Part shown: piece after piece, positions 21,448 through 46,576 of the stretch
How the letters are laid out: the number at the start of each line of letters is the position of its first letter
How positions within the stretch are numbered: position 1 is the first letter of the stretch
DNA from: Prevotella sp.
GTDB taxonomy: Bacteria > Bacteroidota > Bacteroidia > Bacteroidales > Dysgonomonadaceae
Assembly: GCA_031285625.1 (NCBI GenBank)
Contig: JAITVV010000017.1
Span: 1-64,000, forward strand
Length of the DNA stretch: 64,000 nucleotides
Direction: 5' to 3'
Program-made: the position numbers and the translations under genes
The notes under the pieces: model-generated
The model's database searches: none
Told to the model about the DNA's origin: nothing
What the model saw: the letters and a program-made list of their open reading frames with translations, nothing else

Positions 21448-21450
21448 ATT

Positions 21451-22494: not shown

Positions 22495-22666
22495 AAATAA
22501 CAAAAATAAGAGTACCGAAGCTACATATTCCTTGATACAAAAGTATACAGATTATCAATACAAACTCTGACATTACTCAATATATACCAGAGAATTAATC
22601 TCAATCCGTTCTAAATTACCAAACCTTTATATCTAACTCGTTATCAGTAATTATTCTTCCACACAC

Positions 22667-23479
22667 TCAATCTTCCCATTCAGCAGTAATGGTTCTCTGT
22701 TCGGCAGTACAGGCACTGAAATACCCTAACGCTCCATTACTGATATTTGATACCGGATTAGTAGGTGTTCCAACAGCATTTACTAAAGAATCGAAGAATT
22801 TATGAGTTCCTTTATCAACACATTGAAACTCAATAATCAGTTCATCGCCTTTCTTTATCGGATCGATATCCGAATCGTTGGCAAATACCCATAGATCCCA
22901 GTTGTAAGTTTGACCATCTCTAAATTCCAGACTTACAATATATTCGGTTAAATCCGGATTCTGTTTTCCGTTGATAAACAATAAAGCACGGTAATATTGA
23001 TTTATTTCGCCTACAGGATCTTGAAAACGTAACATAACGAAAGGATTATCCACCGCTGCAATTTTTTTCATTGTTACAGACTCTAATGGCACATGGGGAG
23101 GCATTTGTGAAGTTGCAGTATATTCCTGTCCTTCATATACAACAGACATATTGTATTTACGCCCAACTTTTCCTATTATCTTTTCTGCAGTATACCACCC
23201 GTTTGCACCTTGCTTCAGTATCTCTGAATTTCCCTGATCATCAGAGATGGTAACAACAGCTCCACTCAGATTCGGATACCCGTCATTATTATTAAAGTCA
23301 AGTGTATGGCTTACCCGTACTGTTGCCAGCTGATCTTGTTTTACTATACCTTCAATTGCAATTTTCGGAGGGACGGATTTCAGGTCTATGTCAATCTCTT
23401 TTTCGCAGGAAGGAAGACTCACAAGCAATATTGCTATAAGTATAAGTGTTATATAATCTTTTAATAATAAAGTATTCAT
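22667..23479 (-). CDS. DUF4249-like lipoprotein partner of the TonB-dependent receptor
   Basis: Lipobox LPSC-EKEIDIDL; C-terminal PTNPVSNISNGALGYFSA. Confidence 0.85.
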   Translation of the reverse strand: MNTLLLKDYITLILIAILLVSLPSCEKEIDIDLKSVPPKIAIEGIVKQDQLATVRVSHTLDFNNNDGYPNLSGAVVTISDDQGNSEILKQGANGWYTAEKIIGKVGRKYNMSVVYEGQEYTATSQMPPHVPLESVTMKKIAAVDNPFVMLRFQDPVGEINQYYRALLFINGKQNPDLTEYIVSLEFRDGQTYNWDLWVFANDSDIDPIKKGDELIIEFQCVDKGTHKFFDSLVNAVGTPTNPVSNISNGALGYFSACTAEQRTITAEWED

Positions 23480-23530
23480 AATTTATTGGTTGTTAAAGTT
23501 ATTTACCATGTAACAAAAAGATCTGTTACC

Positions 23531-27088: not shown

Positions 27089-27155
27089 TGTTTGACGAAT
27101 GCAATCTTCCCTTTGACAAACGGTAATACACTTGAGAAGTAATGTGTTATCTTTG
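27089..27155 (+). promoter_or_regulatory. Promoter of the divergent two-component pair with 21-bp-spaced repeat
   Basis: TTTGAC at 27091 and 27112; -7 TATCTTTG at 27148-27155 just upstream of ATG 27160. Confidence 0.55.
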
Positions 27156-27159
27156 CAAT

Positions 27160-28185
27160 ATGAAAAATAAATCACCGGATGGAACTTTCTTTATTATCTT
27201 GTTCTGGGTAATATTATTTTCGCTTTGCTGTTTTCAGATAATAACACAGACAGAGTCAGCCTTAGCTGCTGTATTATTCTCGTTGGTACTTATTCTATGC
27301 TTGAGTTTCCCTCTGACATATATCAATCGCAAAATACTGGTTAAAACGATAAAAAAAGGGAAATATGCATTGTTCATTTTCCAGCTTATAGCTTCTTCTA
27401 TATTAAGTTCTGCAATTTTCGCCTCTCTTTTTTTCTTAATGGATACATTGGAAATAAAAGGAATATTTCCTCGCTCCGAATATTTTGAGTTAATATATCA
27501 AAACCCTAAGAATATCATTGAGTTATTCTTATCAATGGGGCTTACAATGAATCTTTGTGTATTCGGATTCTGCTTCGTCATAGAATACTTAAACTCACAA
27601 AAAGTTATTCTGGAATATCAACTTCGTACTCTCAAGCATCAGGTAACACCCCATTTTATGTTCAATGTACTCAACCATATACATGTATTGATGCGAACCG
27701 ACGTAAAACTGGCATCTACCTTATTAATAAAATACTCGGAAATACTTCGTTATCAATTATATAATGGAGAAGAAGAAAAAATGTCACTGGATCAGGAAAT
27801 TCAGTTCTTAAAGGATTTTATTACTGTTGAAGATGTTAGGTGGGGTGATAAGTTAACACTAAACTGTACATGGCAGATAGAAGATGGGAAAATAGAAATA
27901 CCGACATTACTATTTATAACTTTTATAGAAAATGCATTCAAACACGTTTCCAAATCAGATTTTGAGAAAGGCTATATAATTATTGACTTCAAACAACAGG
28001 GAGATACCATAACACTGATTGTTGAAAATTCAAAATCTGCAATCCAAGATAAATCTAACACATCTAAGGGATTAGGACTTAAAAATATAAAAGAACGGAT
28101 GGATATATTATATAATGGAAAACACCAGATTATAGTCAATGAAACAGATCTCGTATATCGGGTAAAAGTAATAATAGGATTATGA
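27160..28185 (+). CDS. LytS/YehU-type sensor histidine kinase (canonical)
   Basis: TM region; QVTPHFMFNVLN; FIENAFKH; GLGLKNIKER. Confidence 0.92.
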   Translation: MKNKSPDGTFFIILFWVILFSLCCFQIITQTESALAAVLFSLVLILCLSFPLTYINRKILVKTIKKGKYALFIFQLIASSILSSAIFASLFFLMDTLEIKGIFPRSEYFELIYQNPKNIIELFLSMGLTMNLCVFGFCFVIEYLNSQKVILEYQLRTLKHQVTPHFMFNVLNHIHVLMRTDVKLASTLLIKYSEILRYQLYNGEEEKMSLDQEIQFLKDFITVEDVRWGDKLTLNCTWQIEDGKIEIPTLLFITFIENAFKHVSKSDFEKGYIIIDFKQQGDTITLIVENSKSAIQDKSNTSKGLGLKNIKERMDILYNGKHQIIVNETDLVYRVKVIIGL

Positions 28186-28913
28186 CAGAAGAAATATCGA
28201 AAGCTAATAATAAAATACGCTGTTTAATTGTGGATGATGAATCAGTAGCTATCAAAGGGATTGCCGATTATATCAACGAACTGGATTTTCTGATAGTGGA
28301 TTCTACTTGTTCTTCTGCTATAGAAGCAGCAGAAATACTAAAGAACAGGGAAATTGATTTGATGTTTTTGGATATCAATATGCCTCATCTGACTGGTCTT
28401 GCTTTCCTTGAGACGTTGGCAAAAGCTCCCTTGACAATTATCACAACTGCATATTCAGAGTATGCGTTAGATGGATACAGGCTAAACGTGGTAGACTATT
28501 TATTGAAACCATTCGATTTTCAACGTTTTTTTCAGGCTGTAACAAAAGCAAGAGATTCGTTTGAGTCTCATAATGTAGAAAAGATTCCTGAAAGTTTGTA
28601 TATCCGGCAAGGCGATTCTTTTTTTAGAATTGAATGGAAAGATATTCTATTTGTAGAAGCAATGCAAAATTATTTGAAGCTACATATAAAAGATAGAATT
28701 TTGGTTATTCATCAGACAATGGCATCATTGGAAGAAAGACTACCCAAAGATGCATTCTTCAGAATACACCGGTCATACCTTGTAAACATATCTTCTATTC
28801 AATCAATCATGGGTAACTGTCTTTTTATAGATGGTAAATCATTACCCATATCACAAAGAAAAAAGGATGATCTGATGAATACCGTTGTATATAAAAACCT
28901 AATAAGTAAATAA
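28182..28913 (+). CDS. LytTR family response regulator
   Basis: IVDDE, FLDINMP, DYLLKP, FFRIHRSYLVN. Confidence 0.95.
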   Translation: MTEEISKANNKIRCLIVDDESVAIKGIADYINELDFLIVDSTCSSAIEAAEILKNREIDLMFLDINMPHLTGLAFLETLAKAPLTIITTAYSEYALDGYRLNVVDYLLKPFDFQRFFQAVTKARDSFESHNVEKIPESLYIRQGDSFFRIEWKDILFVEAMQNYLKLHIKDRILVIHQTMASLEERLPKDAFFRIHRSYLVNISSIQSIMGNCLFIDGKSLPISQRKKDDLMNTVVYKNLISK

Positions 28914-29096: not shown

Positions 29097-29493
29097 GGGG
29101 CTGACTGGCTTTGACAGCGAGATGAAGTGGTTTGTAAGCATGCAGTGCGTAGTCGGCTGGCACTATAATCTCAGACGTCAAAATTTTAACTGGCAATAAC
29201 AATTACGCTCTTGCTGCTTAATCGAAGTATAGTAGATATAGCTTAATCTCTGCACAGGTGTGGAGACAAGACATCGCCCGGAAGCTGTGGCTTCGAAGCG
29301 TGCCGATCAGGCGGTGCAGGCAAATCGGAGATAGAATAAGAGAAGCTTTGGCTTTTATTTGAAATTAAGAAGCTAAGGTTTGAGTTGGTAGCTTTGGTCT
29401 TGCTCACTCCCGACAATCTAAAGCGAAGATAAGCATGTAGAAAGCAAATTAGTTCCTTGTTTGGACGAGGGTTCAAGTCCCTCCAGCTCCACA
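29097..29493 (+). ncRNA. ssrA: tmRNA
   Basis: 5' GGGGCTGACTGGCTTTGAC; 3' T-arm and acceptor GACGAGGGTTCAAGTCCCTCCAGCTCCA; internal tag frame GNNNYALAA-stop at 29192-29221. Confidence 0.97.
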
Positions 29494-29550
29494 GATTGAA
29501 AAAGAAAAATGCATCTTACCCCTGTAAATTACACGTTTACAGGGATTTTT
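29478..29550 (+). repeat. attL, 73-bp direct repeat (ssrA 3' end plus terminator)
   Basis: 71/73 identical to 39805-39877. Confidence 0.95.
29519..29550 (+). terminator. ssrA intrinsic terminator
   Basis: CCCTGTAAA-ttacacg-TTTACAGGG hairpin followed by ATTTTT. Confidence 0.8.
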
Positions 29551-29757
29551 ATTTTCTGTAGTCAGCAAAAAACAGCTGTTTTAAGCATGTTTCACGTGCA
29601 AAATCGCTGCCACTTATTTTTAGACGTTAATGGCAGCACTTTTGCACTCGCTAATTTGGTAAATCGCAGTGAATCAAAGAGATGCAATGATGTGATTTTG
29701 ATATGATTGCTCCGGTTTCGTACTTTGTATTAATGAAAAATTTAAACATTTTAGAGT

Positions 29758-30807
29758 ATGAAAAGAGTAACTTTCAAAGTGTCCTTTTTTGTAAAAAGAA
29801 CCAGGATTGCAAAAAACGGAGAAGTGCCTGTTAAATTAAAGGTAACTGTAAATAAAGAGAAAATTGAAGTATCCATTAATCAGAAGATTAATCCTGATTT
29901 ATGGAGTTCAGTAACAGAGAAATCTACGGACAAAGATCGTAAATCGTTGGAAATTAACAGCCGGTTAGATTCTATCCGTTTCCGACTCATGGAAATTTAC
30001 CGGGAAATGGAAATCAACGGTGAAGAGATTAAAGTTGACAAGATAGTCAATAAGTATAAAGGTATTGAAACAGAGCCTAGGATTACCCTTCTTTCGATAT
30101 TTCAGGAACATAATGAAAGATGTCATAAACTGGAAGGCAAGGATATGTCACGTTCTACAATCATGCGCTATGAAACAGCTTATCGACATACTCAGGAGTT
30201 TATTCAATTTCAATATAAAAAGGAAGATGTCGATATTGAAGAGATAAATTATCAGTTCGTAAAGGATTATGAATTCTTCCTGAAGACAGAGCGGGACTGC
30301 AATCATAATTCGACTATGAAATACCTGAAGAATTTTAAGAAGATAATCCGTATTGCTTTGGCCAATGAATGGCTGAAAAAAGATCCTTTTATGAATTTTA
30401 AAATGACTTATGAGGAAGTTGAACGTGAATTCCTAGAATATCACGAGCTAGAGAAAATCATGCAAAAAGAATTTGAAATAGAGCGTTTGGCTAATGTGCG
30501 TGATATACTGGTCTTCTGTTGTTTTACAGGCCTAGCTTTTTCGGATGTAAAGACTCTATCTAAAGAGCATTTGGTAACTGATAATGAAGATGCATTATGG
30601 ATTCGTAAGCAACGGATAAAAACAAATAACATGTGTAATATACCTCTTCTTGATATTCCTCAGAAAATATTGGAGAAATATAGGACTCATCCTGTTTGCC
30701 AAAAGAAAGGAGTATTGCTCCCTGTTCTCTCGAATCAAAAGATGAATACTTATCTTCGTGAAATAGCTGATGTCTGCGGTATCAAGAAGACGATTACAAC
30801 TCACTAA
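29758..30807 (+). pseudogene. Tyrosine integrase (Bacteroidota arm-binding, SAM-like and catalytic domains), truncated at the HxxR motif
   Basis: FCCFTGLAFSD, RIKT, SNQKMNTYL; ends ITTH-stop-PRHS; no LGH...Y segment follows. Confidence 0.9.
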
Positions 30808-31004
30808 CCAAGACATAGTAATTATTCTTACAAGCTGAAAACAAGCAACTTGCAGAGACTTTATTCTTGACAGGTAACGGTTTAGAAACGAGCAAAGTTC
30901 GCTGTTTTACATCACGTTGCTTTTTGCAGAAATACAAAGAACGACTTACGATTGCAAAGATAGGAAAGTTTACTTAGCGAGGAAAATTATTGAAGTTTTT
31001 TATT

Positions 31005-31055
31005 GTGGTATACTTTTCAAGTACTAGGTGGACTACTTTTCAATTATATTATACA
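31005..31055 (-). mobile_element. Isolated IS21-family-like terminal repeat
   Basis: Minus strand reads TGTATAATATAA-TTGAAAAGTAGTCCAC-CTAGTAC-TTGAAAAGTATACCAC: TG terminus with tandem subterminal repeats. Confidence 0.6.
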
Positions 31056-31214
31056 CGTCCGGCTGGAATATCACGGACAAGTTCTCCTCCTAATTGCGGA
31101 TTCCTGCTTATCAGGTCTTCCGCCATTGGCGTAAGGTTTACACCCGGACAAACTGCATTTATACGGATTCCTTTAACGGCATAATCCATAGCTGCTGTAC
31201 GTGTCATACCGATT
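31056..31214 (-). pseudogene. Internal fragment of an SDR-family oxidoreductase
   Basis: IGMTRTAAMDYAVKGIRINAVCPG...IPAGR, cut at the IS-like end. Confidence 0.85.
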
Positions 31215-31291
31215 GAACTAAAATAAAATAAACATTTTAAAGAAAACAAATTTGTTTATTTTTATTATCTTTGTATATCAATACAATAGAT

Positions 31292-31804
31292 ATGGATTCA
31301 AAAATAGATATAATAAAGGGTATTCATCCGGGCATTATTCTGGATAGGGAATTGAAAAAGAGAAAGCTTCAAAAGAGTCGTTTTGCTATTTCCATCAATG
31401 AATATCCTCAGACTTTGGTTGCTATAACTAAAGCCAAGAGACGCATGAATCCGGAACTTGCACTGAAGATAGAACATGCTCTTGGAATAGAAGAGGGGTT
31501 CTTTATGATCTTGCAAGTGTATTATGATATCGAACAGATTAAAAAGGAACAGAATAAGAATTACCATCCCGATCTGACAAAGATAAATCCAACTCTATTC
31601 TGGGATACGAAAATAGAGGATATCGACTGGGACAAGAACCGGAGATATGTAATCCGTCGCGTTCTTGAACGTGGAAATGAAATAGAAAAGAAAGAGATAC
31701 TCCGCTTCTATGGAAAGGAAAAAGTCAATGAAGTTCTGAGATATTATCGGGATTTAACTCCATCAACAAAAGAAAGTGCAAATAAACTGTTAGAAACTAT
31801 ATAA
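31292..31804 (+). CDS. HigA-like HTH fused to DUF6922-like domain (putative antitoxin)
   Basis: IHPGIILDREL...RRMNPELALKIE (HigA-like); LFWDTKIEDIDW...VIRRVLERG (DUF6922-like). Confidence 0.8.
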   Translation: MDSKIDIIKGIHPGIILDRELKKRKLQKSRFAISINEYPQTLVAITKAKRRMNPELALKIEHALGIEEGFFMILQVYYDIEQIKKEQNKNYHPDLTKINPTLFWDTKIEDIDWDKNRRYVIRRVLERGNEIEKKEILRFYGKEKVNEVLRYYRDLTPSTKESANKLLETI

Positions 31805-31806
31805 CC

Positions 31807-32183
31807 ATGTTGTATTATAATACTGTCACGCCTTTACTGCAAAATGCTCTGGAGAACTAATGCTAGCAGAAGTTTTAAAACCCTTTCGATTAGTTGGTGG
31901 TACATCATTGAGCTTACAACTCGGTCACCGCGAATCGGTTGACATTGACTTATTCACAGATTTGGAATACAATACCGTAGATTTTAAAGCTATTGAAGAA
32001 TATTTGAAACTGAATTTTACTTATGTTTCCACATCTAATATTGATTTGGTAGGATTTGGGAAATCATTTTATATCGGACACTCTGAATCGGACTATGTGA
32101 AATTGGATTTATATTATACAGATCCGTTTATCAGACCGGTAAAAGAAATTGACGGTATTCGTCTAGAATTATTGGAAAATTGA
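31807..32183 (+). pseudogene. AbiEii/AbiGii-family nucleotidyltransferase toxin, frameshifted and 3'-truncated
   Basis: MLYYNTVTPLLQNALE, then 1-nt frameshift into LMLAEVLKPFRLVGGTSLSLQLGHRESVDIDLF; stops after DGIRL. Confidence 0.85.
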
Positions 32184-32370
32184 AAATAAAAGCGAAAACT
32201 GACAGAAGTTATGATTTTTACAACCAATATATATGACTGTTATTTACTTTTAAACAATAAAATGACTAAGGTACAATTATTTGAAATGGCAGAAAAAACT
32301 GTTTTATAGTACTTTAAATATATTTTTCAATAATATACTATCTTTACTAATAAATCTACTATAATAACAC

Positions 32371-33903
32371 ATGAAGAATACAAGGTCAATTCTCCCTACT
32401 GCCGTAGGTTTGTTAACAGCAACAGCTGTAGCCGTTGTTACCTCGGATTATGCAACAGCATCCCTTGCAAGTATTGCAGGACAGATAGGGACCGGCGTTG
32501 CAGGAAATATGTTATCAAGTTTGATACCATCAAGATTAAATAATATAGAGGATGATCCGGAAAAGCTGAATCACAGTATTAAGAAATTATTCATTAATTC
32601 TATATCTCAAGCCCTTTCTTCAGTTTATATTACTTATACGAAAGATGATAATGTAACAAAGAAGGAAAAGAAAGAAGCCCTGAAAATAGTTGGATTTTTA
32701 CAAAAGGGATTAACAGATGAATTAAATAATAACTCAATACTGGACATAAATGAGAATTTAGTCAATGATTTTTTATATCAAAAGGACTTACCGCATAATC
32801 AAGATATTATATCCTATATATTAAGAAAATTAGCTATATCAGAGACACAAATAAGTGATTCATTCAAAAGATGTTTATCAGAAAACTATAACACTTATAT
32901 CGAACTTACTTTCGGAGAGGGGTTAAAAGAAGATTCGAATAGAAATGCATGGATAGCATTTCAACGGCTACTTATCGAAGACTTAAGAGACAGGCTTGTA
33001 AGGATAGAAGATGGCCAGATCAGAATAGAGGAAAAGTTAACTAGCCTAAAAGATGTAAATGGAGAATTTACGGATGAAGAGATGAAAGTCATACGCGATC
33101 TAAAAAAAACTCTTCAAGACAAGGAACTTATAAAAACCCATGTAAGTAAAACAACAACTAAAAGGCTGAAAGCTATTGAAGCTAATGGGGCTAAAGTACT
33201 ATCTATTATAACAAAAACAGATGTCCAGGTAGATAATATATATATTATAATCAAATCGTTTGTAGAAGATTATAATAGAGAGAGAAGAAAAGCTAAACGA
33301 AACATTATAATACTAATACTCTTTCTCATAATTTGTTTTCCTCTGATAACTTATCTGACTTATAATTCTTTTACTCAGCCATTTACATTGTCTATTCAAA
33401 CACATGGCTGGAAAGGCAAGAAACACAGGCCATTAGAAGGGGTTGGAACGCTCGAAATAGTTCTGGGAGATAAAACAGAGAAAGCCGAGATAAGCAGAAA
33501 TGGAGAGGCTATATTTAAGAATGTTGATCATAAATACAATAAGACATCTGTTTTGGTTAGATTACTGGATACCAGAGGAGAATTATACTATGTCTCTGAC
33601 AGTACGGTGTTTATAAATAAAAATAAGATTAATTATGTGCAAATCGGTTTGAAGGGTATAGATGAACTCCAGGGGATCATTATTGATAATATTTCCGGAG
33701 ATGGATTGGGCCAAGCAACAGTTGAACTGGCCGGAGTGGAAACAACAACAGACGAAAAAGGGCGTTTTAGACTCTCCATCCCCATAACAAAACAGGAGAA
33801 AAAGCAGGAAATCTATGTGTATAAGGAAGGGTATACCACCTATCGTGCTATGGTACCAATGGGTAATGAAAATGAATGCAGAATTGTATTGAAACGGAAA
33901 TGA
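32371..33903 (+). CDS. Uncharacterised membrane protein: N-terminal helical/coiled-coil region, TM, two C-terminal beta-sandwich (carboxypeptidase-regulatory-like) domains
   Basis: 510 aa; RERRKAKR followed by TM NIIILILFLIICFPLITYLTY; C-terminal GIIIDNISGDGLGQATV...TTTDEKGRFRL...KEGY. Confidence 0.8.
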   Translation: MKNTRSILPTAVGLLTATAVAVVTSDYATASLASIAGQIGTGVAGNMLSSLIPSRLNNIEDDPEKLNHSIKKLFINSISQALSSVYITYTKDDNVTKKEKKEALKIVGFLQKGLTDELNNNSILDINENLVNDFLYQKDLPHNQDIISYILRKLAISETQISDSFKRCLSENYNTYIELTFGEGLKEDSNRNAWIAFQRLLIEDLRDRLVRIEDGQIRIEEKLTSLKDVNGEFTDEEMKVIRDLKKTLQDKELIKTHVSKTTTKRLKAIEANGAKVLSIITKTDVQVDNIYIIIKSFVEDYNRERRKAKRNIIILILFLIICFPLITYLTYNSFTQPFTLSIQTHGWKGKKHRPLEGVGTLEIVLGDKTEKAEISRNGEAIFKNVDHKYNKTSVLVRLLDTRGELYYVSDSTVFINKNKINYVQIGLKGIDELQGIIIDNISGDGLGQATVELAGVETTTDEKGRFRLSIPITKQEKKQEIYVYKEGYTTYRAMVPMGNENECRIVLKRK

Positions 33904-33905
33904 TT

Positions 33906-36900
33906 ATGAAAAAGCAACTGTGGCTGACTCTTTTTTTCTTAATAGTTCCTTTTATTTGTAAAGGGCAAATGACAAAACTTGACGGGGTGGTTGCCGTGCA
34001 AAATAGTAAAATAAATACCGGACAAATTATATATGTAGAAGGTGTTGAGATTAAACATGACGAAGCCAAATCTGATGTTACTGATAGTAACGGCTATTTT
34101 TCGTTGCAAATAGTGGGAGTAGAGCCCAACACGCAAACTAAAATTGAAGTGACGCCGACAGGCAAATTCAATGATTATATTGTTGTTAATAAGCGGGACA
34201 TTAATGATATAACACTTGGTAGAAAAGAAAGGATCAACATATATATATGCGAAAAAAATGAATATTTCAAAAGGGTAGATGAGCTATATAATATCAATCG
34301 CACAAAAAACGATGAGAAATTTGAAAGAGAAATCAAAGACCTTAAATTTCAATTGACAAAAGCCAGAGAAAAAGAACAATATGATAAAGCAAAACGCATC
34401 ACAGATAGTATAGATAACATTGAAAAGATAAAAGTCAATATGGTTGATTTTATCCGTGATATCTCTGAGAAGATGGCTCAGATTAACCTCGATAATTCGG
34501 ATTCAATTATGTTAAATGCCTTTACAAAAATTTCTCAAGGGGACTTGGACAGTGCATTAATATATATACCAATAGAATTAATAAGAGAAAAATATTTGCA
34601 TGGTGAGATACTCTCCGGTACAGGTCAAAAGATGAAAGATGAAGCTATCCAGTTAGTACTGATGAAAGCTCGTCTGTCTGTCCTGAAGAGTTTCGATGAG
34701 GCATGCAGCAATTATGAAGAAGCGATAAAACTTGCTCCCTTCGATTTTGAGATTATTCTGGAATATATGAGTTACCTTAAAACATACAATAAGTATAATT
34801 CAGCCAAGAGGATAACATTAGAAGCAATAGAACGAAGCATAGAGAATGAAAAACAAACCGGAATTATAAGGGCTGAATCATTAGGCAAAGTTCATTTTCA
34901 ATTAGGTAGCCTTATGTCGGAAGAAGGTGATTTTAATAACTCAGAAGAACACTTAAATAAAGCAGCACATTATTTTCAGATATTGAGCCATAATGTAAAT
35001 GATACTGCCTATGTACAAAAGAAAATGGAGATATATACCATGTTGGGGCAAAATGCCAGAAGACAAAAAAACTGGCATAAAGCTGAGGTATATATGCAGG
35101 AAGCATTAAATTGTGTCAGCATTCAAGAACATATTAATTATCCGGATCATATAATCTTTATTTATTTCCAATTTGGTGAAATCAAACGGACTCAATCAAA
35201 TTATAAAGAAGCCTCTATTTATTTTGAAAAGGCATTGGCCATTTATAAATCATTAGACAAGGAAGATATCAATCCATATCAGTATGCACTTCTATTAAGT
35301 CTGCTTTCATTAACAAAAGTGGAGAATTTTGAATATAATGCCGCTAGGGATTATATAAATGAGGCTATTGATATTGTTGATAATGGTGATATTGAGTCTT
35401 CGTCAATGAAAATAAAAGAGGACTGTGCCGGATGTTTCATGGTTGCGGCTCAATGCTTTGAAAGATTGAATGAAATATCAAAGGCAAAATACTTCATGGA
35501 TAAAGGAATGCAAATTTATACCGATTTAGCAGATAAGTATCCTCAGATATATGCCGATACATATTTTATGAACCTTTTTGAAAATATTGACAGTGAAAAT
35601 AAAGAATCAGAAGGCAAACTGATTGAAGTTATAGGTAAATATACAAGTCTGGCTAAGGATGATTATGCTCTTTTCGAACAATATAGAATCATCCTTTTAT
35701 TTAAACTTACAACATATTATGAAAAACATAATAATAATCAAAAAGCAGACAAATACCTGAAAGAAGCATTAAGTGCCACTGAATTACTACTTGAGACCAA
35801 TCCGATTAAATATTATATAACCTTTTCTGATATTTTTTATAATTTAGGATATCATTATCTTGAGAATAAGAATCTTCCGGCAGCTAATTCATATTTTGAA
35901 AAAGGAATAAGTTATTACAAAGCATATACAGAGCTAAACCCTATGGGCGAAATTGCTGGATTGGGAGATTATTTAAGCCAGATAGGTGATTCCTATACAT
36001 CCTTCCATGAATATGTAATAGCAGAAAAGTATCTTAAGCAAGGTGTTGAGATACTGGCCAAACTGGGAAGCGTTGATAATATATCGTATGCTACGGCTTT
36101 AACAGGCAGTTATTACCAGATTGCAAATAACTATCACCGGATAGCATTATCGGATTCCGCACTTGTTTATATAAACAAAGCATTAGATGTTCAGTCGAAT
36201 CTTTACAAAAAAGATCCATTAATATTTAATTCATCTTATTCAAAGATGCTAGTCTCAGCGGCAGCTTCATATCGCATGCATGGAAATATAGAAATAGCAG
36301 ATAGCCTGATTCATAAATCATTGAATATTTTACAGACAATGGATAGCGCTCAAATAAAAGATCATAATGATGCTTTGTCATTAACATTTATGGAGCTAGC
36401 CAATAACTATAAAAATATGAATAATCATAAGGACGCGAAGTACTATTATGATCAGGCATATCCAATAGTTAAGGAACGGTACAGAGAAAGAGGATATCTC
36501 AATATTCAGAATTACTTGATTCTGTTAAATAACATGGGAGAACTCTTTAACTCTATGGAAGAATTTGATTCTGCTGAACATTATCTTACAGAAGGTTTAC
36601 AGGTTTACGATGAATGTGATTCGACTGAACAAATCGAATGTCTTCATATATATTTACTTTTAAAACAAACATTGGGTATTTCATATCTTAAACAAAATAA
36701 ACGCGATGAAGGTAAAGAGATACTGGATGAAGTAATTACCGGATACGAAGAGCTATACCAGGAAGATAAAAGAGCCGCCCAATCTAATATTGGATATATT
36801 ACCGGAGAATTAGGCCTGGTATATTTAGAGGTAAACGAATATGATCAAGCTTATGAACTTTTAAATAAATCAATAAAGTTAAAGGAGGCATTAAGGCAGG

Positions 36901-39446
36901 AATATGACAATAACAGAAATAAATATGAACTTTCTGTTGCCTATAAGGATATGGGGCAATTTTACCAAAAAGTGGACAATCCGGAGAAATGCATTGAATT
37001 TATGCATAAAAGTCAGGATCTGCTTTCTATTCTGATCAAAGAAGTACCTTCTCAGTATCTCGGATATTATATAAAGAATGGAAATAATTTAGAGAGGGTA
37101 TTACTTGAAGCAGACTCAATAAATCAATATTATGAATTTAATAGTAGAACCAAGGCGGAAATAGAAGGAGTAATAAATAATTATCCACATTTGAAATACA
37201 ATATTATCAACTGGTTAATGGGCCAATCAAATCTATTTAGGAGCAAATTAGATAATATAGATAAAGCAATTGAATATTTTGAAAAAGGGATGCTAATATA
37301 TAATGAAATAGAAAATAAGGACGAGATTGGTGATATTCTTATTATAAGTTTATATTATTATTTTGGAAATCATTATTGTCAAGGGAAAGACATAGCAAAA
37401 GCCGAGATTTATTATAAAGGAGGCATTGATTATATAAATCAACTTGATATTGAAAAACAAAAAGAATATGTAAAGGAAAAATATCTTTTATACAATGACT
37501 TATCGATAATTTATTTCTCTGAAAATATTAATATAGATAAGGGTACGGGGTTAAAAAAAGAAGTGATAAAATATTTAGAATCGAAAGGAAAACGTTCAAT
37601 TAAGGATCTGGAATCCTTAGCAAAATCATATTTAGACCTTGGATATTTGTCCTATAAACAGAAGTCTAATGATAATGCTGAAATGTTATTGACTAAAGCT
37701 ATTCTATTATTTGATTCTAATCAGGATTTATCCTTTTCAAAAGATGCTGCGCAGGCTAATGATTACATGGGATATATCAATATTTCTAGTAATCCTATAA
37801 AATCAGAACAATATTTCAGAAAAGCCATAGATATATTTGAATACAACTATAAAATTGATTCGTTGCAGGCATTAATTGATTTTACGCCTATACTGAATAA
37901 TATAGCTAATTCCTACTACGAAATACAAAATGAAGCTAAATTTGAAGAATATATAGATTATATCCTGACGAAGTCTGAGCCTGTTTTAGAAACATCTGAG
38001 TATTTAGCGGGTTTAGTGAAAATTGTAGATGATTTAAAAAAAATGGAGAACGTAAACCTTTGTGAAAAATATACGGATCTATTATTGAGCAAGGTATCGG
38101 CTATAGATGAAAATACTTTTATGTATAAATTTATTTCAATGTATGTAAATTGCACGAAGTCACAAATACTTGTTCAAAGTAATAAACCTGTTGGGGAATA
38201 TCTGTTGAAAGCGATAAAATCATATTCTACAATTGATGATAATGATTTAGAAATAAATAGTTTATCTTTAGTAGGCCTCATATTTCAATTAGTCCCAATG
38301 GATAAAACCATTAATGAAGAAGTTTTAGTTGAAATAGATTCATTATCTAATAAGTATAAAGATCAGGTAATAAGAAGTTTTGCCAATGAGATGGAAGAAC
38401 AAAGAGTAAATTCCGTACAGCTATTATATCCGCTTGCTGACTTTTATTTACATACTCTTAAAGATCCTGTAAAAGCAAAAGAGCTTTATATACCTATTAT
38501 TTCAGAAATTGATAAGTTGGAAAAAGAGAAACTTCCCAATGACCTATTTATTATCCTGGTGAATTCGTGTGAAAGATTAGGAGCTATTTATTATTCTGAA
38601 AATGATTATGGGAATACTGAGATTTACTTGGAACGTGCACTTGAACTATTAGAAGATATTCCTTCAGAGTATGACAACAGTTCATTTAAGACTGAAATAA
38701 AGAATAGAATGGTAGGACTATACATCAACACGGATAGATTCGATAAAGCATTAGATTTGAATAAAGATGTATTATCATTTTTAGAATCTGCGTCTCAAAA
38801 GTCAGCGCAATTGAAAATACATTATTCTTGGGCATTAGCCAATCACGCTGATATCCATAGCCATAGAGCGGGATTTTCAACAGCAATGGATTATTATACT
38901 AAAGCAGTAGATCTGCATAATGAAATCTTAGCAGATAACCCTGACGAACAAAAGCTAATAAGTGATTTATGCGGTTATTTCCAGCAAATGTATATAATTA
39001 GCTATAAACTTTCTGATTATCAGTCGGCACTTGTCTATGTGGATAAACATTTGGAGTATTTAACAAAACATTCAGATATGACGACCCAGGAATATATAGA
39101 TATGAAAAAATGTGATAAGATATTCCTTCTCTTAGTCTTAAATGAAATTGATAGTGCTGTATCTACACTGAAAGGAATATCATATCCGGGTGTTAATATT
39201 ATTCGGGTACGCTTTTATCAGTCATTGCTAAATTTAATAAATGATGAAAAAGAAGAGGCTATTAATATTTTGAATGATCTAATACATTATATTGAGTCAG
39301 ATTATGATGATAGTAAAGACCTTTATAATATGATTGTTGAGCAAATCCAGGTTTTACATCGAAGTAATAGGCATATACATGAAAAATTGTTTGACGACTA
39401 TTTTGTTATATTAAAGAATAAAATTGATGAATTGCAATTAGAATGA
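33906..39446 (+). CDS. Giant exported TPR-repeat protein with N-terminal beta-sandwich domain
   Basis: SpI signal MKKQLWLTLFFLIVPFICKG-Q; VTDSNGYFSL beta-domain; many TPR-like units (e.g. LNNMGELFNSMEEFDSAEHYLTEGL); start 2 bp after the upstream stop. Confidence 0.85.
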   Translation: MKKQLWLTLFFLIVPFICKGQMTKLDGVVAVQNSKINTGQIIYVEGVEIKHDEAKSDVTDSNGYFSLQIVGVEPNTQTKIEVTPTGKFNDYIVVNKRDINDITLGRKERINIYICEKNEYFKRVDELYNINRTKNDEKFEREIKDLKFQLTKAREKEQYDKAKRITDSIDNIEKIKVNMVDFIRDISEKMAQINLDNSDSIMLNAFTKISQGDLDSALIYIPIELIREKYLHGEILSGTGQKMKDEAIQLVLMKARLSVLKSFDEACSNYEEAIKLAPFDFEIILEYMSYLKTYNKYNSAKRITLEAIERSIENEKQTGIIRAESLGKVHFQLGSLMSEEGDFNNSEEHLNKAAHYFQILSHNVNDTAYVQKKMEIYTMLGQNARRQKNWHKAEVYMQEALNCVSIQEHINYPDHIIFIYFQFGEIKRTQSNYKEASIYFEKALAIYKSLDKEDINPYQYALLLSLLSLTKVENFEYNAARDYINEAIDIVDNGDIESSSMKIKEDCAGCFMVAAQCFERLNEISKAKYFMDKGMQIYTDLADKYPQIYADTYFMNLFENIDSENKESEGKLIEVIGKYTSLAKDDYALFEQYRIILLFKLTTYYEKHNNNQKADKYLKEALSATELLLETNPIKYYITFSDIFYNLGYHYLENKNLPAANSYFEKGISYYKAYTELNPMGEIAGLGDYLSQIGDSYTSFHEYVIAEKYLKQGVEILAKLGSVDNISYATALTGSYYQIANNYHRIALSDSALVYINKALDVQSNLYKKDPLIFNSSYSKMLVSAAASYRMHGNIEIADSLIHKSLNILQTMDSAQIKDHNDALSLTFMELANNYKNMNNHKDAKYYYDQAYPIVKERYRERGYLNIQNYLILLNNMGELFNSMEEFDSAEHYLTEGLQVYDECDSTEQIECLHIYLLLKQTLGISYLKQNKRDEGKEILDEVITGYEELYQEDKRAAQSNIGYITGELGLVYLEVNEYDQAYELLNKSIKLKEALRQEYDNNRNKYELSVAYKDMGQFYQKVDNPEKCIEFMHKSQDLLSILIKEVPSQYLGYYIKNGNNLERVLLEADSINQYYEFNSRTKAEIEGVINNYPHLKYNIINWLMGQSNLFRSKLDNIDKAIEYFEKGMLIYNEIENKDEIGDILIISLYYYFGNHYCQGKDIAKAEIYYKGGIDYINQLDIEKQKEYVKEKYLLYNDLSIIYFSENINIDKGTGLKKEVIKYLESKGKRSIKDLESLAKSYLDLGYLSYKQKSNDNAEMLLTKAILLFDSNQDLSFSKDAAQANDYMGYINISSNPIKSEQYFRKAIDIFEYNYKIDSLQALIDFTPILNNIANSYYEIQNEAKFEEYIDYILTKSEPVLETSEYLAGLVKIVDDLKKMENVNLCEKYTDLLLSKVSAIDENTFMYKFISMYVNCTKSQILVQSNKPVGEYLLKAIKSYSTIDDNDLEINSLSLVGLIFQLVPMDKTINEEVLVEIDSLSNKYKDQVIRSFANEMEEQRVNSVQLLYPLADFYLHTLKDPVKAKELYIPIISEIDKLEKEKLPNDLFIILVNSCERLGAIYYSENDYGNTEIYLERALELLEDIPSEYDNSSFKTEIKNRMVGLYINTDRFDKALDLNKDVLSFLESASQKSAQLKIHYSWALANHADIHSHRAGFSTAMDYYTKAVDLHNEILADNPDEQKLISDLCGYFQQMYIISYKLSDYQSALVYVDKHLEYLTKHSDMTTQEYIDMKKCDKIFLLLVLNEIDSAVSTLKGISYPGVNIIRVRFYQSLLNLINDEKEEAINILNDLIHYIESDYDDSKDLYNMIVEQIQVLHRSNRHIHEKLFDDYFVILKNKIDELQLE

Positions 39447-39804
39447 AAGTTCACTTCACTTTGAGTGAAAGTTTTCTACGTTATCTTATTTTTTCTGTTT
39501 CTAGCAATAAATTATTCAGTTTTTCGGCCTTATATCCTCATAATAACATAGAATATTAAAGCAGGGAAAAATACAGTTCCCTCGGAAAATTGGGGACGAG
39601 TTCTTCCCCAATAAATATTCGAACCGGATAAATTGTTAATATCTAATTACATATAAAATTGGCGAAGAAGGGAATTATACCTAACTTTGTCTCAATCGAA
39701 ACTCAAAGCGATTCACAGAATTATAGCATGTGCATAAATGCTGACGGTTCTAATTTATAGTATATAAGGTATTGAAAATCAATGGCTGTTTGGAAGTATA
39801 ACGT

Positions 39805-39877
39805 TCCCTCCAGCTCCACAGATTGAAAAAGAAAAATGTATCTTACCCCTGTAAATTAGACGTTTACAGGGATTTTT
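39805..39877 (+). repeat. attR, 73-bp direct repeat
   Basis: TCCCTCCAGCTCCACAGATTGAAAAAG...TTTACAGGGATTTTT, 2 mismatches to attL. Confidence 0.95.
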
Positions 39878-39920
39878 GTTTCCCACAAAGTGGTAAAAAA
39901 CGGCAAATTCGGGGATAGTC

Positions 39921-43742: not shown

Positions 43743-44450
43743 TTATGATTTCTTCATCATATCATCAAAAAATAGATCTCTATACGAATTCCCAATGGCA
43801 ATTTCATACATTTTGATAAAAACATCATTATTATCAAAAGATTCAATCTGATTTTTATTAACAATATATGATCTGTTTACTCTGATAAAGATATTTTTAG
43901 GAAGCAAATCATGTATTGTTTTTACATTCATCCGGGTAATAATACGTTGTCCATCCATCTGGATGATAACATAATCTTTTAATCCTTCTATAAATAGAAT
44001 ATCTTTCAGGTTCACCTTGAAGAAACGGCGATCAGACTTTACAAAGATATATTCGTCTTCAACGTTTTCAACACTCTTTTCCTCCTCTTCTAACAAAAGA
44101 GAGTGGTACGTAATTGCTTTATCAACAGCTTTTCTGAATTTTGCAGGATCAATCGGCTTAACTAAATAATCAACGGCATCTACCTCATAACTATCAAGAG
44201 CATATTCAGAATAAGCAGTAGTGAATATTATTAGTGTGTGTTTAGGAATAATTCTCGCAAACTCGATACCAGTTATACCCGGCATCTGTATATCAAGAAA
44301 TATCAGGTCAACCGTTGATATTTTCATGAAATCAGAAGCGGCCTCAGCACTATTAAAACAATCTAATAATTCAAGTTGAGATATCTGATCGACCAGTTTC
44401 TTTATTCCTTTACGAGCTATAGGCTCATCATCTACTATAATACACTTCAT
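43743..44450 (-). CDS. LytTR family response regulator (module B)
   Basis: Very similar to 19655-20371 (MKCIIVDDEPIAR...YEIAIGNSYR). Confidence 0.95.
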   Translation of the reverse strand: MKCIIVDDEPIARKGIKKLVDQISQLELLDCFNSAEAASDFMKISTVDLIFLDIQMPGITGIEFARIIPKHTLIIFTTAYSEYALDSYEVDAVDYLVKPIDPAKFRKAVDKAITYHSLLLEEEEKSVENVEDEYIFVKSDRRFFKVNLKDILFIEGLKDYVIIQMDGQRIITRMNVKTIHDLLPKNIFIRVNRSYIVNKNQIESFDNNDVFIKMYEIAIGNSYRDLFFDDMMKKS

Positions 44451-45508
44451 AATTTCAATTTTAAATTTACGGTATAGGTAGTATCAGTCTTTGTCTGATT
44501 TAATAAATAGTTATTACTAAACAGTAAGTCTAATCTTCTTTTTATATTTGACAAACCGAGCCCTCCCTCCTTCTTTTTTCTTACAATCCCTGAAATCGAA
44601 TTCTCACAGACAAATATCAACTCGCCTTGCTGCAGCTCAAATGACATATAAATATATGAACTATCGTCTGAGGAATTATGCTTTACTGCATTCTCTACAA
44701 AAGGAATAAATAATAAAGGGGCAACCTGTATATTATCCGTATCTCCTTTTATTTCTATTCTATAATCAAATTTGTCTCTTCTTATTTTTTCAAGCTCAAG
44801 AAAATTTGTCAAAAACTTGATGTCATCTTTTAAATAAACCTCATCTTGTACACTATCATTCAACTGATATTGTAGTAAATCATCAAGTTTTTCGAGAATG
44901 TAAGAGGCCATATCCGGATCCTCATCAACCAGTATATTAGCATTATTCAACATATTGAAAAGGAAATGCGGGTTTATCTGACTCTTCAGAAACTTAAGTT
45001 CCGATTGGGTCGTTGCAGACCTTAGTTCGGTTATACGTCGATTACCTATCATCCAGTGCTTAAATAGTAACAGTGCAGATATTCCTCCCAGAAAAAGAAA
45101 TATGGCCAGTAAGGAAGATGCTATACTAAAAAAGATAGCAACAACTGTAGGTTCCTGATGAGTAACACCAATATCATAGAAATACTCTTGCAATAGCATC
45201 ATTATGAATAATGCAAACAATGTGAATATTATGACTGAAACGATATACAAAAATATTTTATTCTTTGCCAAGAAACGGGGAAACAGTACGAATGCATTAA
45301 AATAAACAAGCATATTCATAAACAAGAAATAACCAATCCAACCAAAAAATCTATTTAGCGTCAAATTAAGCCTATCTGGAGCGTCAAAAAACACACCAAT
45401 AGTTATCAATAGGATGACAGCCTGTAGGCTAAGATGCCTGTGTATCCTATATTTATCATCAAATAAAAATGATGACATGCTGGCGTTATTAATCCGTGTA
45501 TTCATCAT
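44447..45508 (-). CDS. LytS/YehU-type sensor histidine kinase (canonical, module B)
   Basis: QINPHFLFNMLNN; FVENAVKH; GGLGLSNIKRRL. Confidence 0.93.
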   Translation of the reverse strand: MMNTRINNASMSSFLFDDKYRIHRHLSLQAVILLITIGVFFDAPDRLNLTLNRFFGWIGYFLFMNMLVYFNAFVLFPRFLAKNKIFLYIVSVIIFTLFALFIMMLLQEYFYDIGVTHQEPTVVAIFFSIASSLLAIFLFLGGISALLLFKHWMIGNRRITELRSATTQSELKFLKSQINPHFLFNMLNNANILVDEDPDMASYILEKLDDLLQYQLNDSVQDEVYLKDDIKFLTNFLELEKIRRDKFDYRIEIKGDTDNIQVAPLLFIPFVENAVKHNSSDDSSYIYMSFELQQGELIFVCENSISGIVRKKKEGGLGLSNIKRRLDLLFSNNYLLNQTKTDTTYTVNLKLKL

Positions 45509-46545
45509 TCCTCTAAGATATCCAGTTGTAACTCTACAAAGCCAGTGTTTAATAGCAATGTATACTTATTCTGATAAAGTAATTCTAACCTCTTTTTTAT
45601 TAAAACTACCTCATCCTCAATTATTTCTTTATCCGTTGCCGATTGACACCGAAGGAGAAGGTATTGATCTCTTAGCCGAAAATCCAAATTTAAATAAGTA
45701 CTGTCATCAATCATACCCTGAACAAGTGTTATCAGCAATAATGGCGATATGATCACATTATTTAAATCCCCTTCTGTTTCAATTGTATATTTAAACTCAT
45801 TTCTATTCAACTGTTCTAATTTGAGAAAATTATTCAGAAAATTTATTTCAGACTTTAAGAAAACCTTGTCTCTATTGCAATCATATAGTTGATACCTCAA
45901 TAATTGGCCCAATTGCATCAGCATATCAGAAGTCTTCTTCGGATCTGTTTTTACCAGAGCCGATGTATTTGTTAATGTTCTGGATAAAAATCCCGGAGTT
46001 ATTTGTCCTTTCAGTTTATTTACTTCCGATTGAAGATGCTCATATTCCAGTTGGCTTACACGCTCATTGCCTACTAACCAATTACGAAATAATACAAGGG
46101 CGGATATTCCCCAAAAGCATATTACTATATTCATAAAGGTTGCCAGATTATCGACCATAATAAGAGGGTTAGTATATGAAGTTACCCTGTGTGGCAATTC
46201 CAATAGATTACGTACCAAACCTTCCTGTAATACAGCTAATGTGGGCAATAAAAATACACCTAAAGACAGGATAACGGAATAACTAACAAACTTGCCTTTT
46301 AATAGATATCTAGGTATTAGAAAATAGTAATTGAAACACATGGCTGCAAGATATTGTAGAAACGAAGAGAAACAAATCACATAAATACGATTCCCTAAAA
46401 CATTACTACAGTCTTGATAAGCTATAAATACCTGATTGAAAGTGATTATAGCTCCAATCATGATAAAAATAAGATACCTCCAGATCCGATATTTTGGATC
46501 GATCAGAAGAAGAGGTACCTTGTATTTTTCTATAACTTTATTCAT
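45505..46545 (-). CDS. LytS-type histidine pseudokinase (module B)
   Basis: H-box QITPGFLSRTLT (His absent); N-box LVQGMI; shortened ATPase domain without G-box; GQLLRYQLYDCNR shared with the module A pseudokinase. Confidence 0.85.
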   Translation of the reverse strand: MNKVIEKYKVPLLLIDPKYRIWRYLIFIMIGAIITFNQVFIAYQDCSNVLGNRIYVICFSSFLQYLAAMCFNYYFLIPRYLLKGKFVSYSVILSLGVFLLPTLAVLQEGLVRNLLELPHRVTSYTNPLIMVDNLATFMNIVICFWGISALVLFRNWLVGNERVSQLEYEHLQSEVNKLKGQITPGFLSRTLTNTSALVKTDPKKTSDMLMQLGQLLRYQLYDCNRDKVFLKSEINFLNNFLKLEQLNRNEFKYTIETEGDLNNVIISPLLLITLVQGMIDDSTYLNLDFRLRDQYLLLRCQSATDKEIIEDEVVLIKKRLELLYQNKYTLLLNTGFVELQLDILEE

Positions 46546-46576
46546 TTCTACCTTGTCTCAGTAAAACAAAGATACA

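Follow-up and report, generated by a model that had tools for sequence, protein, structure and literature searches.

Two adjacent genes on a genomic island of Prevotella sp. (GTDB family Dysgonomonadaceae) were interpreted as a split, membrane-spanning analogue of nucleotide-binding leucine-rich repeat (NLR) immunity that lacks the NTPase, with a periplasmic sensor made of tetratricopeptide repeats (TPRs) and a cytoplasmic head that possibly attacks the membrane; the probability of this interpretation was put at roughly 0.55. The genes lie within the first 64,000 nucleotides of contig JAITVV010000017.1 (assembly GCA_031285625.1), and this whole stretch is referred to here as the window. Gene 1 encodes an inner-membrane protein whose N-terminal head domain, called N-dom here, is placed in the cytoplasm, and gene 2 encodes a secreted TPR protein (Table 1). 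A first-pass annotation, made from the letters of the sequence, had proposed a sensor-effector system acting across the membrane. That reading is supported by the homology of the head and by the swapping of heads on a common scaffold, whereas the defence role, docking, clustering and membrane disruption that were part of the same proposal are inferred.

Residues 1-225 of gene 1 were not covered by any model in Pfam, NCBIfam or PADLOC. A profile of this region (A2), built from 32 of 41 gene 1 loci, was searched against 1.84 billion cluster representatives and matched 300 of them at E <= 1e-3, 173 at E <= 1e-10 and 37 at E <= 1e-30. Among the 150 matches listed, proteins of 110 to 2333 aa, N-dom was always situated inside the first 282 residues, and 59 of the 150 carried the beta-sandwich region of gene 1 at the C-terminus. 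Seventy-four other matches were scanned with Pfam for whatever followed the head. An NTPase of the kind found in signal transduction ATPases with numerous domains (STAND), namely NB-ARC, NACHT, nSTAND3/5, NPHP3_N, AAA_16 or AAA_14, was present in 21; TPRs without a detectable NTPase were present in 11, one of which (P0059) combined N-dom, a transmembrane (TM) helix and periplasmic TPRs, in that order, on a single chain. FHA domains were present in two, and a prokaryotic STING domain (P0144; 51.5 bits against a cut-off of 27.1), a PfkB kinase and a CarboxypepD_reg domain in one each. The remaining 37 had no credible family behind the head, three of them showing chance-level matches only; several of these unassigned proteins were about 400 aa long with a C-terminal TM helix. 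The comparison of residues 1-230 of gene 1 with the N-terminal domains of NLRs, proposed in the first-pass annotation, thus gave direct homology, as seen in the 21 STAND-type fusions.

An alignment of 21 heads from all architectures displayed a common Gly/Ala-rich hydrophobic start, the motifs LNH(D/S)I, FGE.LK and AW.AFQR, and then a heptad-rich helix. The STING fusion also matched the STING half of the TIR-STING effector model in PADLOC, and N-dom there takes the place that TIR has in a known effector of cyclic-oligonucleotide-based antiphage signalling systems (CBASS). Bacterial NACHT proteins have been described as an N-terminal effector, a central NTPase and a C-terminal sensor (Kibby et al., preprint). 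By its location, N-dom fills the effector place in at least three kinds of oligomerising sensors. Because this position recurs, and because no recognised effector enzyme (nuclease, protease, TIR etc.) was fused to N-dom among the 74 proteins scanned, the PfkB kinase domain excepted, N-dom is more likely to be an effector than an adaptor. A protein-atlas lead to NNH2 (PF22734; 0.83) was discarded, as no NNH match was obtained in 19 family members or 19 fusion proteins (hmmscan, E <= 10); hhalign of A2 against a true NNH2 protein, with a single sequence on one side, gave a probability of 0.85%. One close relative of the gene 1 head (P0051, 775 aa) had no TM helix and was fused to TPR units of about 42 aa, some nearly identical; highly conserved internal repeats have been reported for the TPR and WD repeats of NLRs (Dyrka et al., preprint).

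The periplasmic part of the pair was also found beneath other heads. Residues 1-340 of gene 2 were made into a profile (A3, 25 sequences), and of the 401 genomes sampled from the order, eight gave matches to it at E <= 1e-10. In the seven besides that of the window, the gene-2-like gene was adjacent to a gene for a TM protein with the beta-sandwich region of gene 1 (E = 1e-17 to 1e-27). Three other cytoplasmic heads were recognised on these partners, in agreement with the idea that gene 2 homologues would pair with TM proteins carrying swapped effectors. The first, head B, belonged to a TM protein of 361-363 aa and was seen in four genomes; behind its gene came gene-2 paralogues in tandem, between one and five in number, and then the gene for a conserved membrane protein of some 650 aa. 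These loci were L069 (3853-19501), L070 (4841-18111), L071 (2212-12890) and L073 (428-6171), in which some TPR paralogues are broken; one copy of the 650-aa protein had a weak TrkA_N match, and this protein might be the output of the variant. The second was a head protein of 507-514 aa (L074, 3426-8081; L075, 849-5061) encoded after a sigma-70-like gene and accompanied by a gene-2-like TPR protein. It combined an N-terminus that looked anti-sigma-like by eye, a weak C39-peptidase-like match, a TM helix and the sandwiches; the neighbouring sigma-70-like gene had a Sigma70_r4_2 match in L075 only, and two TIR-domain genes lay just upstream in L074, on the other strand. The third was a short form of 275 aa (L072).

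Head B, comprising residues 1-165 of its protein, also opens NB-ARC+TPR proteins (P0191, residues 1-163, 43% identity), closes leucine-rich repeat (LRR)-Roc-COR proteins at their very C-terminus (P0194, residues 1072-1226) and is found on TPR-only proteins. Its profile (A4) had no sequence match in the PDB; a weak PADLOC match to the candidate system PDC-S60 was obtained (E = 0.0013). Two unrelated heads, N-dom and head B, thus each occur both on STAND-type NTPases and on the membrane scaffold. That both families are found in both settings was considered the strongest argument that the scaffold substitutes for the NTPase-plus-repeat part of an NLR.

Gene 1 had 35 homologues with 31-72% identity, most of them full length at 31-40%; 19 of the 36 listed proteins (query counted) formed alignment A1. 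Pattern scans derived from A1 recovered 8 genome loci and 37 metagenome loci, or 41 after four duplicates were removed, many of which came from related gut metagenomes and are not independent. A gene-2-like open reading frame (ORF) adjoined gene 1 in 27 of the 41 loci (25 downstream, 2 upstream), which established that the two genes co-occur elsewhere. Full-length gene 1 stood without a partner, despite room for one, at four loci (L004, L021, L031 and L037); two were a variant (L038) or a fragment (L039), and in eight a sequence end was too near gene 1 to judge. When the window was compared with Dysgonomonas hofstadii, which supplied the second of two Dysgonomonas copies, two parts alone could be aligned, the tmRNA gene and, at 76.8% nucleotide identity over 7128 nt, the two-gene cassette; the flanks differed. 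Of 170 genomes of the family, two had N-dom, and among the 34 further genomes of the genus one did; the source genome of the window has a single N-dom gene. The ratio of nonsynonymous to synonymous substitution rates (dN/dS) between the two Dysgonomonas genomes was 0.14 for gene 1 and 0.20 for gene 2 (dS about 0.95), values that indicate purifying selection on both genes. Conserved pairing, the sharing of the cassette alone with D. hofstadii, the patchy distribution and these ratios together mean that the pair is a functional unit and moves as one. Two N-dom peptide patterns retrieved no relatives from viral contigs, and a search of sequencing runs for the locus listed no RNA run and a single DNA run, which may be the source sample.

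The anatomy of gene 1 was much as first described: the Gly/Ala-rich N-terminus, a helical domain, heptad stretches, a TM helix with positive charges inside and two sandwiches were all recovered with AlphaFold2 (AF2), Kyte-Doolittle (KD) and Hessa hydrophobicity and a heptad test. Residues 6-24 were marginally hydrophobic (KD 1.81, Hessa sum positive), and the helical domain spanned residues 63-224 in the AF2 model. Heptad periodicity exceeded the 99th percentile of shuffles at residues 199-246 and 277-315 in a crude in-house test. The strong TM segment at residues 312-330, with the basic stretch RERRKAKR on its N-terminal side, places residues 1-310 in the cytoplasm and 331-510 outside. Both sandwiches (residues 338-427 and 432-507) were modelled with a predicted local distance difference test (pLDDT) of about 85-95 from a 19-sequence alignment. 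The C-terminus scored 25.1 bits against PF13620, below the cut-off of 32.3; 16 of the 19 family members matched this family, with a best E of 7.7e-09. Foldseek matches of the full model were confined to the sandwiches (transthyretin-like and CNA-B/pilin-type; 5aq0_A, TMt 0.76, rmsd 2.7), and a PDB sequence search with the full-length profile A1 gave weak beta-sandwich matches only. No P-loop NTPase family was matched by gene 1 or gene 2 (Pfam, E <= 1).

The close coupling of the two intact genes was confirmed, with the TGA of gene 1 at 33901-33903 and an ATG at 33906. This ATG opens MKKQLWLTLFFLIVPFICKGQ and aligned with the starts of 24 homologues; the longest ORF, from 33876, would overlap gene 1 by 28 bp. 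Because the ATG at 33906 opens a typical signal peptide and matches the homologous starts, gene 2 was taken as 33906-39446, leaving a gap of 2 bp. The signal peptide, sandwich, heptad stretch and TPRs attributed to gene 2 were all evident from Pfam, the homologue alignment and the heptad test, and the stated lack of a lipobox, a type IX secretion system (T9SS) C-terminal domain and an enzyme motif held as well. The ending with which most homologues close the hydrophobic stretch is one that we take to be the Bacteroidota pattern for signal peptidase I. A lipoprotein was rejected, the single cysteine of the signal peptide ('PFICKGQ') being missing in homologues, which leaves no lipobox; T9SS cargo was rejected for want of a Por_Secre_tail match (Pfam), and no enzyme domain was detected (Pfam, E <= 1). 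TPR matches extended from residue 267 to 1632, with TPR_12 at 109.3 bits against a cut-off of 30.1 and TPR_2, TPR_10, TPR_8 and TPR_1 likewise above their cut-offs.

The description of gene 2 as giant is true of the two Dysgonomonas copies, at about 1850 aa, and is peculiar to them, since complete partners in the related loci measured 600-868 aa. Self-BLAST detected no internal repeats at E <= 1e-3, and the array is therefore not a recent amplification. A further suggestion was that like sandwiches on both proteins form a docking pair. Comparison of the gene 2 sandwich with the second sandwich of gene 1 gave a probability of 18% (E = 0.0013), a result that speaks for a common superfamily at most and not for a specific pair of like domains. 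A complex prediction for gene 1 residues 336-510 with gene 2 residues 21-300 scored 0.00 and carries no weight for or against docking.

Divergence in the TPR protein was concentrated in its middle. The two Dysgonomonas orthologues were 84-88% identical N-terminally against 45-58% at residues 801-1300. Among tandem gene-2 paralogues of the head B arrays, identity came to 49-92% in alignment columns 1-300, to 15-35% in the middle for most pairs and to 41-59% at the end. Conserved ends and a divergent middle are what a TPR protein would be expected to show if one end were kept constant for docking and its ligand-binding surface varied.

Table 1. Coordinates of the island and of the two genes in the window, with the evidence for each feature.
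Feature	Position	Strand	Evidence
tmRNA gene (ssrA), integration site of the island	29097..29492	+	ARAGORN; tag peptide GNNNYALAA
77-nt direct repeat (att-like), left copy, overlapping the 3' end of the tmRNA gene	29478..29554	.	Repeat search, family D1
Integrase remnant with Arm-DNA-binding and SAM-like domains	29758..30807	+	Pfam PF17293 and PF13102 only, E <= 0.001; ORF end '...KKTITTH'
DUF6922 gene, upstream of AbiEii fragment	31271..31804	+	Pfam PF21956, E = 1.3e-23
AbiEii toxin fragment, 107 aa against a 238-position model	31860..32183	+	Pfam PF08843, E = 4.2e-09, profile positions 13-111 only
Gene 1, bitopic inner-membrane protein, 510 aa	32371..33903	+	ORF; 35 homologues
N-dom, residues 1-225, cytoplasmic head common to STAND/NLR-like, STING, FHA and TPR proteins	32371..33045	+	Profile search, Pfam scans, 21-head alignment
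Gly/Ala-rich, marginally hydrophobic N-terminal segment, residues 9-52, 2-3 short helices predicted	32395..32526	+	KD 1.81; pLDDT <50; kept in all architectures
Helical bundle with invariant N67-H68, K71, F181-G182-E183, K186, W194, Q198-R199	32548..33015	+	Alignments A1 and A2; AF2 pLDDT 75-95 over most
Long heptad-periodic helices (putative coiled coil) linking head to membrane	32965..33315	+	AF2 helices 188-226, 235-281, 287-335; heptad test
TM helix, positive charges on N-terminal (cytoplasmic) side	33301..33363	+	KD 2.86 and Hessa sum -3.8 at residues 312-330; RERRKAKR just ahead
Periplasmic beta-sandwich 1	33382..33651	+	AF2 strands 338-427, pLDDT about 87-93
Periplasmic beta-sandwich 2 (CarboxypepD_reg / transthyretin-like)	33664..33891	+	Pfam PF13620, E = 2.4e-05, below cut-off; Foldseek 5aq0_A, TMt 0.76
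Gene 2, secreted TPR protein, 1846 aa from the conserved start	33906..39446	+	ORF, start codon, TPR families
Signal peptide, predicted cleavage before Gln21	33906..33965	+	Sequence; most homologues close the hydrophobic stretch with A-Q|Q
N-terminal beta-sandwich of gene 2	33966..34250	+	Conserved block in A3; weak profile match to second sandwich of gene 1
Putative coiled coil of gene 2	34251..34490	+	Heptad test, residues 169-204 numbered from the 33876 start
TPR array, its middle most divergent between the two Dysgonomonas copies	34491..39443	+	Pfam TPR_12, E = 1.1e-31, and others
77-nt direct repeat, right copy, end of the island	39805..39881	.	Repeat search, family D1

The 10.3-kb island lies at 29097-39881 of the window, whose G+C content is about 30-39%, and is integrated at the 3' end of the tmRNA gene. 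Its 77-nt direct repeat is present in two copies, 96% identical and 10327 bp apart. Together with the remnants listed in Table 1, these repeats bear out the description of a decayed island, and genes 1 and 2 are its sole intact cargo. No catalytic domain was matched in the integrase ORF (Pfam, E <= 0.001). An ORF of 66 aa on the reverse strand (31049-31249) resembled by eye a fragment of a short-chain dehydrogenase ('...GIRINAVCPGV...') and would be a further remnant. Membership of the pair in an AbiE system was rejected, since the AbiEii fragment and the DUF6922 gene are all that lies upstream and both are missing at the D. hofstadii locus. There, the cassette stands about 3 kb upstream of the tmRNA gene, with unrelated flanks. 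Two similar clusters flank the island region of the window (19655-25852 and 43743-48925), each comprising genes for a LytTR response regulator, for two proteins of the His_kinase family and for a receptor that begins with a CarboxypepD_reg domain; another two-component pair of LytTR type is located at 27142-28913.

Individual loci elsewhere departed from the two-gene arrangement. The variant at L038 (589-9665) encodes a protein of 730 aa that keeps the head, coiled coil and TM helix; its extracytoplasmic domain, of about 390 aa, is unrelated, and a TPR partner is missing. Its neighbours included, by eye, ParA-like and type I restriction-modification-like ORFs, as well as an ORF that carries an MreB/Mbl actin-like domain (Pfam, E = 3.4e-61) behind a P-loop-like N-terminal region. 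At L014 (4426-9870), an 1815-aa BspA-type LRR protein with GLUG motifs, a CarboxypepD_reg domain and a T9SS sorting domain has its start 4 bp inside the end of the gene-2 homologue and may be a third component of that locus, unless the arrangement is fortuitous. A second TPR protein of 774 aa follows the gene-2 homologue directly at L035 (14132-16453). A second, decayed copy of the head, with four in-frame stops (profile positions 109-219), was found at G008:C3:421459-421791 (L048), presumably in D. hofstadii.

If the pair is an immune system, the following mechanism can be envisaged. The conserved end of gene 2, its beta-sandwich and coiled coil, would dock on the periplasmic domains of gene 1. 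A periplasmic ligand would then bind the TPR array, for which foreign proteins or peptides of phage, bacteriocin or secreted-effector origin are candidates, and binding would alter the oligomeric state of the complex. The coiled coil of gene 1 would carry this change across the membrane and gather the N-dom heads, whereupon the Gly/Ala-rich N-terminal segment might enter the inner membrane and lead to cell arrest or death.

Several observations count against this interpretation. We know of no immune sensor built on periplasmic TPRs, and neither protein matched a known defence family, PADLOC yielding only a chance-level TPR hit. The sigma-linked variant (L074 and L075) seems to show that the periplasmic module is a general device for signalling across the membrane and not tied to defence, and its gene content suggests that the scaffold can drive transcription. 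The first 52 residues of gene 1, whose topology is inferred, were modelled at pLDDT <50 and are only marginally hydrophobic, so this segment could be a plain membrane anchor. A resemblance of the head to HeLo or MLKL, which the first-pass annotation had suggested looking for, was not found, nor did the N-dom model have a convincing structural relative or a match to a pore-former (Foldseek best E = 0.55; VIA-align best Z = 6.5), a result that does not exclude a HeLo, MLKL or Bell fold. Solitary copies of gene 1 exist, as noted above. Finally, the neighbourhoods of gene 1 were mixed and gave no consistent defence-island signal: housekeeping neighbours included HtpG, pantoate ligase, PEPCK and LptF/G, while those of mobile or defence type included TIR and FGE-sulfatase proteins (L005), MNT/HEPN pairs around L021 and a conjugative element (L008).

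The main rival is a non-immune signalling system across the envelope, in which the TPR protein would sense an envelope or nutrient cue, gene 1 would relay it and N-dom would be a regulatory output, for example by binding or modulating a membrane or cytoplasmic target. It would account for the link between the scaffold and a sigma-70-like gene, with a head that looks anti-sigma-like, for the many housekeeping neighbourhoods and for the want of a PADLOC match to either protein; CarboxypepD_reg+TPR architectures are, moreover, widespread (Atlas clusters of 50-174 members). Such a role was nevertheless judged rather unlikely. N-dom and head B recur as terminal modules of STAND NTPases, and N-dom caps a STING protein, all partners typical of conflict systems. 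The extreme patchiness of the pair (2 of 170 genomes), its residence on an island, and the tandem repertoires of TPR paralogues with hypervariable middles also fit poorly with a non-immune cue.

It is also conceivable that the pair is immune and that N-dom is an adaptor, which would recruit a separate effector through homotypic N-dom contacts. This 'effector-associated domain' principle has been described for STAND systems (Kaur et al. 2021), and the N-dom-only short forms (about 200-260 aa) and the tail-anchored forms (about 400 aa, with a C-terminal TM helix) could be recruited partners. The arrangement was considered improbable: the 74 relatives scanned offered no fusion to a recognised nuclease, protease, TIR or similar effector, the single N-dom gene in the genome of the window leaves no recruit present, and the short forms may be fragments of metagenome contigs.

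TPR proteins also serve in envelope assembly, CpoB, PorE and those of polysaccharide export being analogues. A further possibility is that the pair helps to build or support the envelope, with the TPR protein as a scaffold, and does not signal at all; secreted proteins that combine a coiled coil with TPRs, and CarboxypepD_reg domains along with them, are frequent in envelope machinery. Export, secretion and peptidoglycan genes do not accompany the pair, though; the module moves alone, is missing in 33 of 34 other genomes of the genus and has a cytoplasmic head in common with STAND and STING proteins, which makes this explanation very improbable. Least probable of all is that the genes are decaying island cargo with no current function, for while their island neighbours are fragments and a second N-dom region in D. 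hofstadii is broken, the two ORFs are intact across 7 kb and their dN/dS ratios, at a dS of about 0.95, are low.

Among known systems, the NLR-like STAND NTPases of bacteria (Avs, bNACHT and NB-ARC+TPR proteins) can be compared with the pair part by part. Some of them start with a module homologous to N-dom, a TPR array is the presumed sensor in both, and sensor-driven oligomerisation of a terminal effector would fit both. The pair differs in having no P-loop NTPase, its place being taken by a coiled coil and a TM helix, and in having its sensor on a separate, exported protein with a signal peptide, so that the system spans the inner membrane. The Bell domain, the Bab-Agp system and the fungal HeLo domain (HET-S) likewise have, where the effector stands, a helical bundle whose N-terminal segment is hydrophobic. 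Bell has been proposed (Dyrka et al., preprint) and Bab reported (Ibarlosa et al., preprint) as a cell-death execution domain. Bell measures about 100 aa against about 225 aa for N-dom, and no fold match of N-dom to such domains was found; Bell and Bab-type death domains are functional analogues only.

The closest published theme is that of the conflict systems in which EACC2 and a caspase form a constant cytoplasmic module and the C-terminus varies between a STAND NTPase and a sensor that is extracellular and has TM helices (Kaur et al. 2021). N-dom, by contrast, is all-helical, is not EACC2 and is accompanied by no caspase. The TM-STING effectors of CBASS, in which two N-terminal helices precede STING and the mode of action was described as unknown (Culbertson and Levin 2023), may overlap with the N-dom-STING fusion represented by P0144. 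The window, however, has no STING domain or cyclase; neither a CD-NTase nor a cyclic-nucleotide sensor domain was present among its genes (Pfam), so the pair does not classify as a CBASS effector. As in cell-surface signalling by extracytoplasmic function (ECF) sigma and anti-sigma factors, a bitopic inner-membrane protein would relay a periplasmic event to a cytoplasmic head, and relatives of the scaffold adjoin a sigma-70-like gene. Gene 1 itself has no anti-sigma domain and the island no sigma factor gene, and neither was detected among the window genes scanned (Pfam). ExoR-ExoS provides an example of a periplasmic repeat-protein regulator. Zorya and Kiwa are defence systems that sense phage at the envelope; they have in common with the proposed mechanism the idea that attack is detected at the membrane or in the periplasm and not in the cytoplasm, and they have no domains in common with the pair, which had no PADLOC match to either. 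The pair and its head were found in no paper; the supplements of STAND/NACHT surveys, which were outside the scope of the literature search, may list the domain as 'TM' or 'unknown'.

A bolder extension of the immune interpretation is offered tentatively, as an idea that is more probably wrong than right. The pair might represent an unrecognised class of innate immune receptors in Bacteroidota that survey the periplasm, in which diversifying TPR receptors (some genomes have tandem repertoires of three to five TPR paralogues) would sit on a bitopic adaptor with interchangeable NLR-type heads, the coiled coil replacing the STAND NTPase. Such receptors would detect phage ejection proteins, bacteriocins or injected effectors before they reach the cytoplasm, and N-dom would attack the cell's own membrane. 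If this were true, N-dom would be a new and widespread family of cell-death effectors, which would also explain some membrane-associated STING and STAND proteins.

As known so far, NLR-like immunity in bacteria operates in the cytoplasm and needs an NTPase. In the present systems the same terminal heads, from two unrelated families, are connected by a single-pass membrane protein to a TPR sensor in the periplasm. On the non-immune reading, this would still be a new modular scaffold for trans-envelope signalling in Bacteroidota. If the system is immune, bacteria would own pattern receptors that face outward into the periplasm, the ATPase switch would be dispensable where a membrane-spanning coiled coil can transmit clustering, and N-dom, a domain with no name and 300 cluster representatives, would be a candidate effector of cell death. 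Since the module consists of two genes, moves as a unit and is present in cultivable Dysgonomonas and Porphyromonas, the hypothesis is directly testable.

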